Below, in pieces: positions 1 through 11,160 of a stretch of DNA of 64,000 nt. Source of the DNA: Dictyostelium discoideum (lineage: Eukaryota). Under the pieces are notes generated by a model. It was not told where the DNA came from and did not search any database. It saw nothing but the letters and a program-made list of their open reading frames with translations. The stretch lies in NCBI GenBank assembly GCA_000004695.1, contig CM000153.2, positions 2,560,001 to 2,624,000 on the forward strand, given 5' to 3'. The position numbers and the translations under genes were made by a program. Position 1 is the stretch's first letter; every line of letters starts with the position of its first letter.

Positions 1-1
1 A

Positions 2-1115
2 TCAGAATCAAATCTTCATTTCTTAGGTTTTATCATTATGGAGAATAGAGTTAAACCTCAATCACCACCAATCATTCAAAGATTACAAAGTGCAAACATT
101 AGAACCGTTATGGTAACTGGTGATAATGGTTTAACGGCTACTAGCGTTGCAAAGCAATGTGGTATAATTAAAAGTGATACATTATTATTTATGGGCTTAA
201 TTCAACCATCATCATCTCCATCACCAACCAATGGTATTGAGGATGAGATTATTTGGGAACCTGTTTCTCAAGATGGTAGAGGTAACATTCATAAATTAGA
301 TCCAACCACTTTATTATTGGATGAAATGAATCGTGATTATAATTTGATTGTCAGTGGACCTGTTTTCAAACAAATCTACAATCATTATTTAGCAACTGGT
401 TCACCTAGATTCATTAATATGTTGAGACGTGGTATTGTTTACGCAAGAATGACACCAGATGAAAAACAAAGTTTGATCGAAGAGTTACAACGTATTGGAT
501 TATATGTTGGTATGTGTGGTGATGGTGCAAATGATTGTGGTGCATTAAAGGCTGCCCATGTTGGTATATCTTTATCAGAGAGTGAAGCATCAATAGCTGC
601 ACCATTTACATCAACCATCACCGATATCAGTTGTTGTCCAAATTTAATTAAAGAAGGTAGAGCATCATTGGCAGTTTCTTTCAAACTCTTTCAATTTATG
701 GGAATATATTCATTGATTCAATTTACTTCGGTAATCTTTTGTTATTTCCATGCAAGTGTTTTGGGTAATTGGCAATATCTTTACCAAGATCTCATAGTCA
801 TCTTTCCATTGGTAATCTTTTTAGGTATGACTGAACCATGTGAAAAACTTTCTGTCAAACGTCCATCTGGGAGATTGATAAGTTTAAATATGATTGGTTC
901 ACTATTATCTCATATCACTGTATGCTTTGTATTCTTACTTGTTGTTTTCCATTTGGTTCAAAGCAAATCTTGGTTTGACGAGCCCTTACTCGATCCAGAT
1001 AATATTTTTAATTATATCACTACCTCTCTTTTCATTTTTGGATGCTTCCAATATTCAATTATGTTATTTGTATTTTCATTTGGTAAACCATTTTTAAAAG
1101 CAATTTATACAAATA
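2..1115 (+). CDS. P5-type (ATP13A-like) P-type cation ATPase, penultimate exon; the gene starts upstream of the window
   Basis: Frame-2 ORF is open from the window edge (ORF table 38..1216). It carries the P-type ATPase hinge motifs MVTGDN and GDGANDCGALKAAHVGISL, followed by hydrophobic TM helices. A canonical GTAAGT donor sits at 1116. Confidence 0.8.
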
Positions 1116-1234
1116 GTAAGTTTTTTTTTTTAATATCTATTTTTAGTTTACATTATTACATAATTACTAATATAGTTTTCTTTTTTTTTATTTTTTTTTT
1201 TTTTATTTATTTTTAAAAGGATATTTATTTTTAG

Positions 1235-1551
1235 TTTACATTGTTACATTAATTGCAAATTTAATAATACTATTTGGTGGCTTTGAGAAACTTTATAATT
1301 TCTTACAATTAAGAGTTATCCCAGTTAGTTGGAGAAGTACAATGTTTGGTATGATAATAGGAAATTTAGTTGCCAATTGTCTTATTGAGCTTTCCTTCTA
1401 TTTCTATAAATCTAGATCAAAGAAGAAAAAGATTTTAAATATAAGAATTATTTTCTCAAAGAAAAACAATGAATTACCAAAAGACCCAAGAGTCTTTAAT
1501 ACTAATTCAGTTTCAATTCCAATTTATCAAGATTATTATGATACCTTTTAA
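1235..1551 (+). CDS. P5-type ATPase terminal exon (hydrophobic C-terminal TM segment)
   Basis: A ttag acceptor at 1231-1234 restores frame (YIVTLIANLIILFGGFEKL...), which stays open to TAA at 1549-1551. An alternative acceptor at 1218-1219 gives the same frame. Confidence 0.5.
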
Positions 1552-1671
1552 TAAATTTATTTTTAACACGCAAAAAAAAAAAAAGAAAATGGTTTTGGGT
1601 GGCTTGTTTGGTTTTTTTATAATATTGATTAATTAATTAATTTATCCATCAACATTAATTAATAGGTTTAT

Positions 1672-2637
1672 TTAAGGATTTTTAATTTTTGAGTTATGGT
1701 TGGATGACAGCTCCCTTGAATAATCGTTAAGTAGGAAGTCTATTTTCTTAAGCATTATGCTTGAGAGGGTTGAGGATTTTTTTAATCTCCATCTGCGCTT
1801 GTTCATCTGTATGTTGGGTAGAGTGAAGGTGGTTGATAGGAAGTTGTGATCTGATAGAGGTATGTCATTAATTTTTGGGGGGATTAGGTTCCTTAAGTAT
1901 AATTGGCTGTAGTTGATTATGCTATTGTTAAGGTATATTCTGTCTAGTCTCCTTTCCAAGATTCTTGTGAGGTTATTGTTTGTGTTGTGTATCGTTCTTG
2001 AGAAGGTGGGTCTTTTATTTAGTTGGTCCATATCCATTAGGTTATTTGAAATTCTGATGGCTTCAATTACTGTGGCCATCTCATCTGGGGATTGTGTTGT
2101 CAAGTTGCCTTGGTCGTCATTTGATGTGTGATTGTCATTGAAGTCTAAACAATTGAAGTCACCTGCTATGATGTCGATGTTTTTATTAGGGTTAGACGTT
2201 AGGTTGTGGTATTGGTTGTTGAAGAGTTTGTTTAGTGTTGAAGCTAGTATTTTTCTTTTATCAGGTTGGGCCGGGGCGTATATGGCCAAGATTCTCGTTG
2301 TGGTATCTTTTATTAGAATGTCTGATATTATTAGTCTACCTTCTATTATGAATATTGGTGAGAGTTTTATGTTTTGGTTGTTGTGGTTTAGTATTCCTAT
2401 TCCGTTGCCTCTGTTGGTTGCGCTAATGATGAAGCCAGGAAATAGCTGGTGTGCTTGTGTTGCGTCAGCATTGAGTTCATTGACTATGGTTAGTGCCAAT
2501 GAGTTTGGGGGGNNNNNNNNNNNNNNNNNNNNNNNNNNNNNNNNNNNNNNNNNNNNNNNNNNNNNNNNNNNNNNNNNNNNNNNNNNNNNNNNNNNNNNNN
2601 NNNNNNNNNNNNTTTTTAAACGCGGCTTTAAATTCAA
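1672..2637 (-). CDS. Retrotransposon ORF2 fragment: apurinic/apyrimidinic-like endonuclease (EEP) domain, interrupted by an N-gap
   Basis: ORF-table 321-aa ORF with the motifs IIAGDFNCLDFND and LSDHNFL typical of L1-type APE domains. A run of X residues corresponds to the 100-N gap. Confidence 0.7.
   Translation of the reverse strand: MNLKPRLKXXXXXXXXXXXXXXXXXXXXXXXXXXXXXXXXXXPPNSLALTIVNELNADATQAHQLFPGFIISATNRGNGIGILNHNNQNIKLSPIFIIEGRLIISDILIKDTTTRILAIYAPAQPDKRKILASTLNKLFNNQYHNLTSNPNKNIDIIAGDFNCLDFNDNHTSNDDQGNLTTQSPDEMATVIEAIRISNNLMDMDQLNKRPTFSRTIHNTNNNLTRILERRLDRIYLNNSIINYSQLYLRNLIPPKINDIPLSDHNFLSTTFTLPNIQMNKRRWRLKKSSTLSSIMLKKIDFLLNDYSRELSSNHNSKIKNP
2513..2612. other. Assembly gap (100 N) inside the retroelement
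   Basis: Literal run of n characters. Confidence 0.97.
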
Positions 2638-2665
2638 TTTAAATCCAATTTAAATCAACTTTTCT

Positions 2666-3088
2666 TTAAATTTGCTTTAAAGGTGCATTTTTCTTTGCTG
2701 TGGATTTAATTAGTTTACATCCTTCATTTTCTATTACCCATTCTATTTCTGTGAGTGATTTATACCAATCGAAATCCGTATACATATTTTTTGGTCTTAG
2801 AGTGGTTATAAATTGTCCTTTTAATTCTGCATCGAACATATTTACAAAATAGATTACTGTACTAATACTGTCTGTGAGAATTTTGAATGTATTATTACTT
2901 TTGATTAAAACATCTTTTTTGTCCAAACTTTTTTCTAAATCTTTTTTTATTTTATCGTCTGGTTCGTGATTGATGTTTATGACGTATTTGAATTGTTTTT
3001 TTTTTAATTGAGTTTTATCCACAATTTCGCTTATTTTTTGTAGGCATTTGTGTTGCTTAATATTTGTGGTGTTGTTTGTGATTTTCAT
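2666..3088 (-). CDS. Retrotransposon ORF1-like protein (140 aa)
   Basis: The ORF lies immediately 5' of the APE-containing ORF2 on the same strand. It is basic and Lys-rich, and its position matches the ORF1 of TRE5 elements. No independent homology was recognised. Confidence 0.45.
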   Translation of the reverse strand: MKITNNTTNIKQHKCLQKISEIVDKTQLKKKQFKYVININHEPDDKIKKDLEKSLDKKDVLIKSNNTFKILTDSISTVIYFVNMFDAELKGQFITTLRPKNMYTDFDWYKSLTEIEWVIENEGCKLIKSTAKKNAPLKQI

Positions 3089-3163
3089 TTTATTTTCTTT
3101 CTATTTTTTATATTTTTCTTTAAAAAGTTAAAAATCTGGAAATTTTCTGATTAACTTGGTTCC

Positions 3164-3165
<2 letters not shown>

Positions 3166-3210
<45 letters not shown>
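3166..3210. repeat. 45-nt poly(T) homopolymer (poly(A) on the element strand) between ORF1 and the A-module repeats
   Basis: Uninterrupted t-run. Confidence 0.95.
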
Positions 3211-3214
<4 letters not shown>

Positions 3215-3482
3215 TCTTTTTTATATGAAAAATGAAATAATCAAAAAAAGAGATTGTTGTTGTTGTTTGTTTTTTTTCGATCTGATTATTTTTTGCTTTT
3301 TTTTGAAAATTTTGCTACGCAAAATTCTCAAAACGAAACAAATAATAAATTACAATAAAGTAAAAAGATGGCTTTTTAAGATAGTTTATTTATTTATTTA
3401 TTTGTTTTTTAAGTCTTTTTTATATGAAAAATGAAATAATCAAAAAAAGAGATTGTTGTTGTTGTTTGTTTTTTTTCGATCT
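3211..3482 (-). repeat. Direct duplication of a ~72-bp A-module-like segment (copies 3211-3282 and 3411-3482; 200-bp period)
   Basis: A near-identical string, taagtcttttttatatgaaaaatgaaataatcaaaaaaagagattgttgttgttgtttgttttttttcgatct, occurs twice exactly 200 bp apart. Confidence 0.75.
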
Positions 3483-3536
3483 CAAAATTTATCCCAAGGA
3501 ATTGAAATACGGCGATCATTACAAGAATCCCATAAA

Positions 3537-3610
3537 GCCTTAGTAGCTCAGTTGGTACGAGCGTGAGACTGAAGATCTTAAGGTCGCTGGTTCGATCCCG
3601 GCCTGAGGCA
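3537..3610 (+). tRNA. tRNA-Phe (anticodon GAA)
   Basis: The cloverleaf folds cleanly. The acceptor stem GCCTTAG pairs with CTGAGGC, the D-arm is GCTC/GAGC, the anticodon stem is TGAGA/TCTTA with loop CTGAAGA (anticodon GAA), the T-arm is GCTGG-TTCGATC-CCGGC (B box GGTTCGATCC), and the discriminator is A. The A box is TAGCTCAGTTGG. Confidence 0.93.
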
Positions 3611-3638
3611 AATATTTATCAAACATTCAATAAAAAGC

Positions 3639-3656
3639 GCAAGTTCGATTCTCGGT
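3639..3656 (+). promoter_or_regulatory. External B-box-like element (caagttcgattctcgg) ~30 bp downstream of tRNA-Phe
   Basis: GTTCGATTC matches the B-box consensus GGTTCGAnTCC. Dictyostelium tRNA genes are known to carry an extra downstream B box. A T-run terminator follows at 3662-3670. Confidence 0.45.
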
Positions 3657-3659
3657 CAC

Positions 3660-4317
3660 TTTTTTTTTAAAATGAAAACTGGTCAATATTATAAAAAACA
3701 ACTAAATCATACTCAATCACCAAACCGTGTGAGATACAACACAGCAATACCCAAAGTATTCAAAACATCAACAGCATTTCTCACCAAAAAGGTAGAAACA
3801 CCCTCTTCAGATTCTTCTCAAGATCACTTCCAGGTATCAACCACGAAAGAGACACCAGATGCAAGATCTGTGGCCACCTATTCAGAGACCCTTATTCTCA
3901 CCTCTTCACTCTATGCCAAGATATCCTTGATATTGAAAAAACCATCATATCAACAGTTAAAAAATTATCATTCATCAAAATCCACAGATGGTCAATGGAT
4001 ACCTTAGACATATCAAAATACAACAGAACTGAGAGAATCTTCCCCAATCTCATAGGAATAATAGCACACCAATTATGGAAGATAATCTGTCACAAATTGT
4101 TCAACACTGATGAAAGCAAACCAGAGCCAAAATTCGAACAAAAGGTCATAGAAACAGAATTACTAAATCTCATCGAAACTGAAAAATTCATCACACTAAA
4201 GAAAATCAAACACGACGAAGCAATACTAAAAAACACCAATCAAGATCTTCACAAATACAAATTCAACAAAGCCTGGCAAACCCCAGCAGCTCCGAACCCT
4301 CTTCCAATTTAAGTAGT

Positions 4318-4398
<81 letters not shown>
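3660..4398 (+). mobile_element. 5'-truncated non-LTR retroelement 3' fragment (TRE3-like), ending in a ~78-nt poly(A)
   Basis: The segment is GC-richer and carries two overlapping out-of-frame ORFs (3672-4007 and 3995-4312). It ends in a long pure poly(A) at 4321-4398. Its start ~50 bp downstream of the tRNA gene is consistent with the TRE3 class of downstream integrators. Confidence 0.5.
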
Positions 4399-4408
<10 letters not shown>

Positions 4409-4560
4409 GTTTAAAAAAATTAATACAATTGAATAATAAAAATAAAACCGTTTAACAAACACCGCCGAAAAGACAAAAGGACATTCCTTGAAGGTCTGAT
4501 CACAGGTAAAAAAAAAAAAAAAAAAACAATCACCAAACCGTGATAACAAAAAAAAAGGCC
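4399..4560 (+). mobile_element. Short retroelement 3'-end fragments: GC-rich caccgccgaaaagacaaaaggacattccttgaaggtctgatcacaggt followed by A18, then a 16-mer that recurs at the start of the upstream fragment
   Basis: A poly(A) run sits at 4510-4527. The string caatcaccaaaccgtg at 4528-4543 is identical to 3714-3729. Confidence 0.3.
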
Positions 4561-4639
4561 AAATAAAAGAAAAAAAAATCATTGATCAAATTAAAAAAAA
4601 GATTGGAATAAATTTTATTTTAATAATTTAAGCCATTTA

Positions 4640-4985
4640 ATAGTTGGTATTATAGAAATAATTTAAATGATAATGAAAACAATTTAAAACACCTTTAAAT
4701 GTGTATTTGGACATCAATACCAAGGATAAAGATTAATTAAATGAGAATCTGTATTTGTTTGAACCTTGTTACCACTTTGTTGTGTTTGATTAGACATTTG
4801 ATTTAATGATTTGAAACTTCTTTTGCTTGATTTAACATTACCTAAAGATGAAATTGATTCTTTTACATAATGTTTTGTAAAATTAAATTTTTTTTTTTTT
4901 TTTTTTTTTGTTAGTTTTTTTTTTTTTTTTAAAATTCAAAAAAAAAAACTTTTAAAATTTTATTCTTATTGTATAACATTTTGAA
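4640..4985 (-). pseudogene. hssA-like array copy 1, decayed
   Basis: The donor is mutated (ATGTTATACAATAAGA instead of ...AGTAAGT), and a deletion before the C-terminus shifts the frame (…DSHLINLYPWY*). Confidence 0.4.
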
Positions 4986-5557
4986 ATATAAAAGAAATTA
5001 AATTGATATTGAATTTGTATTTGAAATGGAGTAGTTTAGAATTTTTTTAATTTCATATTTATACTTTTTTTTTTCAATTTTTTTTTTTCTCCTTATGTAT
5101 TTTAAATTACTATATTAGATATTCAAATTGAATATAAATCAATAATTTTAAAAAATCGCCTTTAAATAATTTTATTTTTTCAAAAAATCTTCTCCTAAAT
5201 ATTTTTTATTTTTAAAATCTAAAAAAAAAAAGCAGATCCTTGGATTTGTAATCATCTCTATTGGGAAAACAAAACTAATCCCTATATAAGATTGGATAAA
5301 AGAAAAAAAATTTAGTTTAAGATGTAGAACTCACAAATAATTGATTGAAAATAAAAAAAAAAAAAAAAAAAAAAATTTCTATCATGTTTGGTCATATTGG
5401 AAAAAAAGCTAAATCTTTGGCCAAATAAAAAAGAAAAATCTTTGATCAAAAAAAAAGAAATTAAATTTTTTTAAATTTATTTTATAAAAAAATATTGGAT
5501 AAAATTTTATTTAATCAATTAAGACTTTTAGTGTTTTGTATGATACAAAAAACACCT

Positions 5558-5841
5558 TTAAATTTGTAATTGGACATCAATACCAAGGATATTTGCAGAA
5601 AGATCTATTAAATGAGGATTTGTATTAGTTTGAACATTGTTACCACTGTGTTGTGTTTGATTGGATAATTGATTTACTGATTTGAAATTGTTTTGGCTTG
5701 ATTTAACATTACCTAAAGATGAAATTGATTCTTTAAAAATGTTGTTATGTAAAAAAAAAAAGTTTTTTTTTTTTTTTTAATTTTTTTTTTTTAATTATTA
5801 TTTAATTCAAATTTTAAAATTTTAAACTTACTGTATAACAT
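5558..5841 (-). CDS. hssA-like small protein, array copy 2 (apparently intact; same exon-intron structure; coordinates approximate)
   Basis: ATGTTATACA with a GTAAGT donor at ~5832-5841 (minus). Exon 2 encodes KSISSLGNVKSSQNNFKSVNQLSNQTQHSGNNVQTNTNPHLIDLSANILGIDVQLQI with TAA at ~5558. It differs from copy 3 by several substitutions but preserves frame. Confidence 0.45.
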
Positions 5842-6568
5842 TTTGAAAAATTAATGGAAAAGTTGGAATTATTGTAAATGTTTTAATTTGAATTGAAGTG
5901 GTTTACAATTATTTTTCATTTCCTATTTATACTCTTTTTTTTTTTTTTTTTCATATTTTTTTTTTTCTCAAAACATTAGTATAATATTATATGCAAATAC
6001 TAAATACTAAATAAATAACATAGATATTCTATTATCAAATCGTTAATTTTTTGTTGATTTTTATTTTAAAAAATCGCCTTAATTTTACAGATTTAAAAAA
6101 TCTAACATAAAAAAAGGCATATATTTGGATTTGTATTCAACTCTTAAGTGATAAAAATTCGGGATTTCGCGCCATGACAAGTTATTTTAATAAATGATAT
6201 ACTCCGCAACAAAGATTACGTAAACAAAAATAAAAAAAATCCATATTTTACACAAGCGTAAAAAAAAAAAAATTACAATTCAATTAGGAATTAATTTTTT
6301 TTTTATAAAAAAACCAACTGCCATCTTCAAAACTTTTAAAACCCAAAAACACTGGGTGATATTTGAAAAAAAAAAAAAAAAAAAAAAAATTGTTCTTTTT
6401 AGCAATAAAAGGAAAAAAAAAAATTGTTCTTTTTAGCAATAAAAGTAAAAAAAAAAATTCTATTTATAAAAAAAATTATTATTGTATAAAAATTTTATTT
6501 AATCATTTAAACCATTTAATGGCAGATACTATATAGAAAAATTTCAAATGATACCATTAAAATCACCT

Positions 6569-6856
6569 TTAAATGTGTAATTGGACATCAATACCAAGGA
6601 TATTTAGAGAAAGATCAATTAAATTAGAATCTGTATTTATTTGAACATTGTTTCCACTTTGTTGTGTTTGATTGGATAGTTGATTTACTGATTTGAAGTT
6701 GTTTTGGCTTGATTTAACATTACCTAAAGATGAAATTGATTCTTTAAAAATATGTTTTTGTAAAAAATATTTTTTTTTTTTTTTTTTTGTTAGTTGTTTT
6801 TTTTTTTTTTTATTATTTAAATCAACTTTTAAAATTTTAAACTTACTGTATAACAT
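6569..6856 (-). CDS. hssA/2C/7E-like small protein, array copy 3 (exon 1 6847-6856, intron 6742-6846, exon 2 6569-6741; ~61 aa: MLYKSISSLGNVKSSQNNFKSVNQLSNQTQQSGNNVQINTDSNLIDLSLNILGIDVQLHI)
   Basis: The sequence reads ATGTTATACA followed by a GTAAGT donor and a 105-nt AT-rich intron ending ...tttttaaag, then the in-frame exon. The SISSLGNVKS motif resembles the N-terminus of hssA/B-like/sigN family proteins, which are also short and have a single 5' intron. The ORF table shows the unspliced read-through (95 aa). Confidence 0.5.
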   Translation of the reverse strand: MLYSKFKILKVDLNNKKKKKQLTKKKKKKYFLQKHIFKESISSLGNVKSSQNNFKSVNQLSNQTQQSGNNVQINTDSNLIDLSLNILGIDVQLHI

Positions 6857-7429
6857 TTTGAAAAATTAATGAAAAAATTAAATTGATACTTGTTTTAATT
6901 TGTATTTGAATTGAAGTGGTTTAAAATTATTTTTCATTTCCTATTTATACTCTTTTTTTTTTTTTTAAATTTTTTTTTTTTTTTTTTACTTATATTAGCA
7001 TAAAATAATATCCAAATACCAAATACTGGTAATTAAAACAATTTAGATATTCTATTATAAAATCGAAAATGTTTTGCTTATTTTTTTTTAAAATAATCGC
7101 CTTTAAATAGTTATAATTTTACAGAATTTTTTTACTAAGAAATGGTATAAGATTAAAAAAAAAATTCTAGATCCAGCAAATTATTGATTTTTAAAAAAAA
7201 AAAAAAAAAAAATTTTGATAAATTTTAAAAATAAATACATTAAAATTTAAGCCTTTAAGGTGAAAAGTAATTTATGCTGCGCAAGTGGGTTGTTGTAATA
7301 AAAAAAAATCTTTATTGTTCAAGAGCTAAATCCACTAACAAATAATAAAATAATCTAAAAAAAAAAAAAAAAATCTAAAATAAAAAAATAAATAAAAAAA
7401 AAAAATTCGATGAAATTTTATTTCATTTT

Positions 7430-7620
7430 ATCATTTAAGATATTTAATGTTTTATATTATAGAAATGATTTTAATGATACCATTTAGAGCACCTTTAAAC
7501 TCGTAATCCAATACCAACACCAAGGATATTTGCAGAAAGAAAAATTAAATCTGTTATTTTTTTAATTTGTATTTGAATTGCAGTGGTTAACAATTTTTTA
7601 TTTCCTATTTATATTCTTTT
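7430..7620 (-). pseudogene. hssA-like array copy 4, internally deleted remnant
   Basis: The unit retains the 3' flank and the 5' flank (gtatttgaattgcagtggtt...) but lacks most of the coding region. Confidence 0.35.
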
Positions 7621-8201
7621 TATTTTTTTTCTCCCTATATGTTAGTATAAAATAAAATAGCAAATACCTAATTAATATATTTTACTTAGATATTAACAAA
7701 TCGAGAATTTTATGTCAGATTTTTTTTTTTTTAAAAAAAAAAAAACGCCTTTAAATAAACCACTTGCACCACCTTTTTTTAAATTAATTATTATCAATAA
7801 TCTACAAAAATAAAATAGATAATTAATTAAACAATATTAATAATTAATAAATAATTATTAATATTATTTATGATAAAATACATTTCTTTCAACAAATCCC
7901 AATATCATATGTAATAATAAAAAAAAAAAAAAAAATCTTACTTAAGAACTGATATGCAATACTAAGAATTCAGAAGTCAAATAATAACCAATAACAATAA
8001 TTACCTTAAGATTTGCCAAAACTTCAAATTACTTTCCACAGAAAGTTTACATGTTTTTAAAAAATAAATAAATTTATTACACCCATTTAACTTTTCCTTC
8101 AAAATAAAAATGAGATGACTGAATAAATTTATCATTATATTTTATTTCAATTAATTATCTTATCTTATTTTATTCTATTTTATTTTAGAGTTTTTTTAAA
8201 A

Positions 8202-11160
<2,959 letters not shown>

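Follow-up and report, generated by a model that had tools for sequence, protein, structure and literature searches.

Targeted retrotransposons at tRNA genes and the locus analysed

Targeting of tRNA genes by the TRE5 and TRE3 retrotransposons of Dictyostelium discoideum has been described since about 1990. Here we analyse a stretch of 64,000 nucleotides of D. discoideum AX4 chromosome 4 (contig CM000153.2, positions 2,560,001 to 2,624,000; hereafter the window), in which a tRNA-Phe(GAA) gene has material of these tRNA-gene-targeted non-long-terminal-repeat (non-LTR) retrotransposons (TREs) on both sides. We conclude, with a probability of roughly 0.9, that this is the documented tRNA gene PheGAA-11, with a TRE5-A element upstream and a TRE3-type element downstream, and that the element lacking a reverse transcriptase (RT), as proposed in an earlier sequence-only reading of this DNA, is an artefact created by an assembly gap of 100 N.

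TRE5-A requires an intact B box and the complex of TFIIIC and TFIIIB bound to the tRNA gene, and the protein encoded by its first open reading frame (ORF1) binds TFIIIB subunits in vitro (PMC3159450, PMC5911963). Its published insertion window lies 40-54 bp upstream of tRNA genes and that of TRE3 40-150 bp downstream, the TRE3 elements keying on an internal or an external B box (ex B) (PMC5911963). Ty3 of Saccharomyces cerevisiae offers a functional likeness, in that the RNA polymerase III complex on tRNA genes picks harmless integration sites; yet Ty3 is an LTR element with an integrase that inserts within a few bp of the transcription start, and both sequence and mechanism are unrelated.

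The tRNA gene of the window and the motif behind it are the following:

3537-3610, plus strand: tRNA-Phe(GAA), PheGAA-11 (ARAGORN, Rfam, S2 Table of PMC5391098)
3643-3651, plus strand: GTTCGATTC, an external B-box-like motif read from the sequence and located 33 nt behind the tRNA gene (ex B concept: PMC5911963)

The gene was called by ARAGORN and by the Rfam tRNA model (62.5 bits) and is the sole tRNA called in the window. Its coordinates plus exactly 2,560,000 are those of PheGAA-11 on AX4 chromosome 4 (2563537-2563610; S2 Table of PMC5391098), and the PheGAA primer matches exactly at 3563-3586. In this table, de novo TRE5-A(bsr) integrations at PheGAA-11 are represented by 5, 1280 and 403 mapped reads in three libraries, so that the role of this gene as a landing pad is already an experimental fact. 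The sequence-only reading had proposed precisely such a landing pad with both flanks occupied, and this holds, TRE5-A lying upstream and TRE3-type sequence downstream.

The locus was compared with GCA_054883475.1, a gap-free assembly of D. discoideum (chromosome CM142510.1), in which one locus, L006, spans the whole gap. The comparison was anchored on a single-exon neighbour gene (8202-11159, minus strand) with an exact match, and the far side of the gap was reached via the cluster members P0141 and P0150 and then L006.

A TRE5-A element upstream of the tRNA gene

Leftward from the tRNA gene, the upstream element presents the following parts:

3492-3504, no strand: proximal copy of the 13-bp TRE5-A target-site duplication, tcccaaggaattg
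3483-3491, no strand: 9 extra nucleotides at the TRE5-A 5' junction
3284-3482, minus strand: TRE5-A A-module (199 nt), followed by a partial second copy at 3212-3283 (72 nt), both detected through a 199-bp repeat
3168-3211, minus strand: A44 run (T44 on the plus strand), a normal internal feature preceding the B-module
2878-3167, minus strand: 5' B-module of TRE5-A, 290 bp, which holds the start of ORF1
2703-3088, minus strand: TRE5-A ORF1, codons 1-128; homologues extend beyond 140 aa
2613-2702, minus strand: first 90 nt of a 759-bp terminal-inverted-repeat element inside TRE5-A ORF1, with the left inverted repeat CACAGCAAAGAAAAA...

The element standing head-to-head with the visible tRNA gene is TRE5-A. 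Its 5' end on the minus strand is at 3482, 54 nt from the tRNA start at 3537, just where a TRE5-type element had been placed from the letters alone (~54 bp); this spacer corresponds to the top of the published 40-54 bp window, the range observed in the genome being 37-90 bp, and the same 5' terminus is found in L007, 49 bp upstream of a tRNA-Val gene. The A-module repeats suspected earlier are borne out as well, by a direct repeat of 199 bp at the element's 5' end (3186-3291 versus 3385-3490, 92% identity), which resolves into one A-module and a partial second copy. The B-module, whose published length is also 290 bp (PMC3159450), is duplicated in the 3' untranslated region (UTR) with 99.4% identity (L006 312-635 versus 5957-6282; window 2878-3212 versus L006 6282-5946). 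We considered whether the A44 run could be the tail of a separate short element and rejected this, as such a run precedes both B-modules of the same TRE5-A (A35 ahead of the 5' and A34 ahead of the 3' B-module in L006).

An ORF1 had been recognised in the sequence-only reading, and correctly so: an ORF of 140 aa (2666-3088, minus strand) is identical to AX4 DDB_G0284873 (Q54P21, 'hypothetical protein'). This gene model consists of the first 128 codons of TRE5-A ORF1 and 12 codons of an inserted element, and is a transposon fragment rather than a host gene. It ends at 140 aa because the 759-bp element (L006 811-1569 in full) interrupts ORF1 after codon 128. With the 759-bp element and 2 bp excised, ORF1 encodes 444 aa (51.4 kDa), compared with the 51 kD of the published TRE5-A ORF1 (PMC5911963). 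Two primers for endogenous TRE5-A could be located in the L006 ORF1, Rep-190 exactly and Rep-109Q with one mismatch. This ORF1 also contains ISTVIYF, the peptide specified by the primer Rep-234 for codon-adapted TRE5-A ORF1 (primer sequences from S1 Table of PMC5391098).

The gap-free assembly shows this TRE5-A to be complete (L006 40-6428), with the order A-module, partial A-module, A35, B-module, ORF1, ORF2, A34, B-module, C-module and oligo(A). Its ORF2, which falls inside the gap of AX4, is uninterrupted over 1047 aa, carries RVT_1 (E 2.5e-33) and shows weak APE-like similarity (APE, apurinic/apyrimidinic endonuclease) at the N-terminus; the copy had been called non-autonomous for want of an RT, but it is ORF1 that is broken. 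Without the insert the element measures 5628 bp, versus a consensus of 5647 bp (PMC5006619). Directly after the oligo(A) lies the distal copy of the target-site duplication, CAATTCCTTGGGA (L006 6429-6441). The duplication defines nicks 32 and 45 bp upstream of the tRNA gene, and the element's 5' end stands at 54 bp because the 13-bp duplication and the 9 extra 5'-junction nucleotides lie in between. Position and orientation, modular UTRs, an ORF1 product of ~51 kDa and an RT-bearing ORF2 thus all agree with TRE5-A.

The closest described element is TRE5-A.1 (formerly DRE), which shares the head-to-head placement with the tRNA gene, the module order A, B, ORF1, ORF2, B, C, oligo(A), an A-module of ~200 bp, a B-module of 290 bp and a total length within 20 bp of the 5647-bp consensus. 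The copy at PheGAA-11 differs by an extra partial A-module (72 nt), by the 9 extra nucleotides at its 5' junction, and by an ORF1 that is split by the 759-bp inverted-repeat element, such that it cannot supply its own ORF1 protein; moreover, the window shows just the first 780 bp of it.

The 759-bp element itself displays an apparent 2-bp (TC) duplication, internal tandem repeats of 11-12 bp, and two tRNA-like, B-box-like stretches, GGATCGAATCC and GAGTTCGAATCC. In a comparison with Rfam, its palindromic part gave nothing but sub-threshold matches to miRNA families, mir-548 among them. It may correspond to thug-S or to another DNA transposon.

The 100-N gap: ~19 kb with a second tRNA-Phe gene in a gap-free assembly

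To the left of TRE5-A ORF1 the window continues with:

2513-2612, no strand: 100-N assembly gap, standing for ~19.0 kb (L006 901-19913)
1691-2512, minus strand: APE part of ORF2 from a TRE3-A-like non-LTR element, forming the final 822 bp of a 2.3-kb copy; the ORF1 of that copy falls within the gap

The two sides of the gap align with L006 almost without differences (window 1-2512 versus L006 22424-19914, 99.96% identity; window 2613-3521 versus L006 900-1, 99.0%), and both gap edges are matched by L003, L005 and L006 at 99.0-99.96% identity. An inspection of other assemblies, suggested along with the sequence-only reading as a means to fill the N-gap, is thereby achieved: the gap corresponds to ~19.0 kb, and both junctions at its edges are shared with AX4. 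In L006 it contains the rest of TRE5-A, a mini TRE5-A of A- and C-module sequence, a second, divergent tRNA-Phe(GAA) gene (L006 7622-7695, on the minus strand of the window) and three TRE3-type elements. The AX4-based tRNA table lists no PheGAA gene of chromosome 4 near PheGAA-11, the next one, PheGAA-12, being at 4.60 Mb (PMC5391098).

The three TRE3-type elements are arranged behind the hidden tRNA gene as a nested series. The innermost is full-length (~5.23-5.27 kb), has its 5' end 87 bp from the hidden tRNA gene, is flanked by the duplication ACGAGAATT, and is nested within the initial 42 nt of the second one. The latter belongs to a different, TRE3-B-like family (~5.30-5.32 kb; duplication TTCAATTCCTAT). 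The outermost copy originally began 101 bp from the hidden tRNA gene, is 97.6% identical to the innermost one over 2337 bp, and ends abruptly; it is 5'-complete and devoid of the 3' 2.9 kb and the poly(A). It is this outermost copy whose end is visible in the window as the APE piece, and its target was the hidden tRNA-Phe gene, not the visible one.

The APE-like ORF (1672-2512, minus strand) matches Pfam Exo_endo_phos with an E value of 9.6e-4, below the Pfam cut-off. Its kinship is evident from closer relatives: the piece is 96% identical to residues 59-332 of P0142, an ORF2 protein of 1260 aa with APE, RT and finger, and 98-99% identical to copies in L001 and L002, while the identity to the TRE5-A ORF2 at the same locus is 23% (E 0.07). 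At other loci, its close relatives are found downstream of tRNA genes and in tRNA orientation. A full-length sister copy measures 5227-5273 bp, depending on how the terminal A-run is counted, and the TRE3-A consensus 5229 bp; the ORF2 cluster of this sister copy has 79 members at 90% identity, and for TRE3-A, the most abundant TRE3, 67 genomic copies have been reported (Table 1 of PMC5006619). The piece is hence TRE3-type and, judging from element length and abundance, most likely TRE3-A. The APE piece and the elements in the gap resemble TRE3-A (formerly Tdd-3) and TRE3-B in that their 5' ends follow a tRNA-Phe gene at 45-101 bp downstream and in its orientation, and in that they have poly(A) tails, target-site duplications, an ORF2 with APE, RT and Cys/His finger, and lengths of ~5.23-5.27 kb and ~5.30-5.32 kb against consensus lengths of 5229 and 5279 bp. 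The difference is that the copy in the window is 3'-truncated.

These data bear directly on the alternative put forward in the sequence-only reading, namely a single minus-strand element of the TRE5 class from 3482 to ~1672, 5'-complete, deleted internally or at its 3' end, and left with ORF1 and APE but no RT. Both pieces do lie on the minus strand, in the right order, with only the 100-N gap between them, and this much of the earlier description stands. But the APE piece is 96% identical to the 1260-aa ORF2 and finds its relatives downstream of tRNA genes in tRNA orientation, the TRE5-A brings a complete ORF2, a 3' UTR and a target-site duplication of its own, and 19 kb separate the two pieces in the gap-free assembly, where the second tRNA-Phe gene and two other elements lie in between. 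We therefore regard a single TRE5 element as almost certainly wrong. The collapse of ~19 kb to 100 N has set the TRE5-A ORF1 beside a TRE3-A-like APE fragment from the opposite side of the gap, and the resulting chimera is an assembly-gap artefact.

It could also be argued that AX4 truly differs from the gap-free assembly, for example because recombination between stacked elements removed much of the 19 kb. Stacks of repeats are prone to recombination, and the flanks, at 99.0-99.96% identity, differ between the assemblies, including in the lengths of their poly(A) runs. On the other hand, the junctions at the gap edges (ORF1 to inverted repeat, TRE3 to ATPase gene) are the same in both assemblies, a block of 100 N is the conventional sign for a gap of unknown size, and each edge ends within a repeat, as expected when a stack of repeats has not been spanned. 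Such a rearrangement in AX4 thus appears improbable, and a collapsed gap remains the preferred explanation.

The mini TRE5-A in the gap (L006 6812-7077) joins the first ~75 nt of an A-module to C-module sequence. It is oriented like the full-length element, lies farther from the tRNA gene than the latter, and has a possible 8-bp duplication, ATAATTAT.

A two-part TRE3-type insertion downstream of the tRNA gene

On the other side of the visible tRNA gene we found:

3714-3729, no strand: left copy of a 16-bp target-site duplication, CAATCACCAAACCGTG
3730-4526, plus strand: TRE3-type insertion of 0.8 kb, 119 bp behind the tRNA gene
4527-4542, no strand: right copy of the 16-bp target-site duplication

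The first part of this element encodes the C-terminal 194 codons of an ORF2, including a CX2CX9HX4C finger and a stop codon at 4313-4315, and its protein has phmmer matches to ORF2 C-termini. There follow an A79 run (4321-4399), a 3' module of 108 nt (4400-4507) and an A19 run (4508-4526). With its position 119 nt behind the tRNA gene, which falls into the published TRE3 range of 40-150 bp, the same orientation, the terminal A19 and a 16-bp duplication, the insertion has the hallmarks of the TRE3 class. Retroelement material with poly(A) runs had been noticed here before, and indeed exists as TRE3-type sequence in tRNA orientation, the run lengths being A79 and A19 and not the A78 and A18 given earlier. 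The further claim that at least two stacked 5'-truncated fragments are present has to be abandoned: the region is one insertion with one target-site duplication. The duplicated 16-mer is exact, brackets the whole 797 bp, and would be expected by chance with a probability of about 2e-8 for each placement. The two-part unit recurs with different flanks in L002 (7717-8454), L007 (7849-8611) and L008 (4366-5124; D. citrinum), and a related element in L007 (68%) has the same two-part 3' end.

One may nevertheless envisage two stacked downstream insertions, an older one at 4400-4526 (A19) and a younger one at 3730-4399 (A79) that landed at its 5' edge, as there are two separate A-runs and as stacking of TRE3 is common and seen on the other side of this very locus. 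However, the sole duplication brackets all 797 bp and none surrounds 3730-4399 alone; the succession of ORF2 stop codon, poly(A), ~110 nt and oligo(A) is repeated at three other loci, one of them from D. citrinum, as well as in the 68%-related L007 element; and TRE5-A possesses similar 3' modules separated by A-runs. Two independent hits are for these reasons very improbable, and we retain a single insertion of 0.8 kb.

Concerning its family, comparison of the 0.8-kb element with the two TRE3-type families in L006 gave no similarity, either at the nucleotide level or with tblastx. With the candidate families TRE3-C and TRE3-D it has in common the downstream position, the tRNA orientation, the oligo(A) and a finger-bearing C-terminus of a TRE-type ORF2; TRE3-D is known solely as a partial consensus of 1559 bp, without a full-length copy. 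What sets it apart is that a single 5' end is common to the three 0.8-kb copies of D. discoideum, an unusual finding if truncation on the 5' side were random. They all start at (CG)GTGAGATACAAC, within 3 nt, despite different target-site duplications, and the copy from D. citrinum continues beyond this point on its 5' side, in frame. Such a pattern suggests that a truncated master was propagated, rather than that each copy was truncated at random. The element might even represent a discrete non-autonomous subfamily with a fixed 5' end, produced from the transcript of such a master, with a TRE3 ORF2 protein recognising the conserved 108-nt module and mobilising the subfamily in trans, an idea that we put forward as tentative and rather doubtful. 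A hairpin is predicted in the 108-nt module, but it is not statistically supported (z-score -1.35, no covariation in four copies). If the idea were true, the 0.8-kb subfamily would be a SINE-like derivative (SINE, short interspersed nuclear element) of a tRNA-targeted LINE (long interspersed nuclear element), whose transcript would start at GTGAGATAC.

The 545-aa protein P0168 was considered as a longer copy of the 0.8-kb element and rejected, its gene model being a fusion of two adjacent elements in L007. In this model (ACTFIT_004581, L007 6001-8433), predicted introns join the ORF2 remnants of two 68%-related TRE3-type elements. In L002, a minisatellite of 13 bp, TTCCTTTTTTCAA, lies downstream of a tRNA-Pro gene (7430-7716 and 8455-8530) and has been the target of two TRE3-type insertions.

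Several points weigh against the overall interpretation and should be set beside the evidence presented above. [quoted passage not shown] TRE3-C and TRE3-D are candidates for the 0.8-kb element in the same manner, with no reference alignment behind them. Finally, the gap was filled from GCA_054883475.1, an assembly other than AX4, and the near-identical flanks suggest that AX4 would contain the same sequence.

Flanking genes

On its left side, the locus borders on a protein-coding gene:

1-1551, plus strand: 3' exons of a P5-type cation ATPase gene, stop codon at 1549-1551 (ORFs, Pfam Hydrolase)
1552-1690, no strand: spacer of 139 bp from the ATPase stop codon to the broken end of the TRE3-A-like copy

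That the 3' end of a P5-type ATPase gene is located here agrees with what had been read from the sequence, Pfam and homologues giving the same assignment; the orthologous gene model carries PF12409 (P5-ATPase). A protein search with the P5-ATPase fragment returned distant homologues only (cation-transporting ATPase 13A2/3) and no Dictyostelium protein. The transposon had been placed ~110 bp from the stop codon of this gene, but its edge is at 1691, and the distance is 139 bp. The spacer shows no similarity to any element examined, and the junction at 1691 is identical in the gap-free assembly (L006 20735). As an AATAAA overlaps the ATPase stop codon, formation of the mRNA 3' end may well precede the TRE3 junction.

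To the right of the locus, positions 4560-7100 of the window comprise three tandem paralogous units of ~0.5-1 kb each, mutually ~80-85% identical and unrelated to transposons. Each unit holds one small intron-containing gene on the minus strand, for which the orthologous model has a faint match to PF05710 ('Coiled').

Proposed history of the locus

We infer the order of events, including the deletion, as follows. A divergent pair of tRNA-Phe(GAA) genes has been struck repeatedly by TREs. At the visible gene, TRE5-A.1 entered 32-45 bp upstream through target-primed reverse transcription, its 5' end turned towards the tRNA gene; a 13-bp duplication arose, 9 extra nucleotides stand at the 5' junction, and the 759-bp inverted-repeat DNA element would later have entered its ORF1. 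Downstream of the same gene, one short TRE3-type element landed at 119 bp, in tRNA orientation, generating the 16-bp duplication. The hidden tRNA-Phe gene would have received three TRE3-type insertions, the newest being the nearest to the tRNA gene. Older copies are pushed outward because hits recur at a fixed distance, as the nesting at the hidden gene directly demonstrates, and the poly(A) ends and duplications are explained by the integration of both TRE classes through target-primed reverse transcription. The oldest TRE3-type copy appears to have lost its 3' half by a deletion ending 139 bp from the ATPase stop codon. Target-primed reverse transcription always retains the 3' end of an element; the missing 3' half therefore points to a later deletion, which would also have removed flanking DNA.

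Significance

Every feature of the locus fits the TRE5/TRE3 system of D. discoideum, and the biology is in this sense known. The locus calls for caution with annotations: the 100 N of the AX4 reference conceal ~19 kb, a second tRNA-Phe gene included, reading across N-gaps can yield chimeric "elements" without real existence, and the protein-coding model DDB_G0284873 is a transposon fragment. Beyond this, the 5' end that recurs among copies of the 0.8-kb TRE3-type element provides a small lead on derivatives mobilised in trans.

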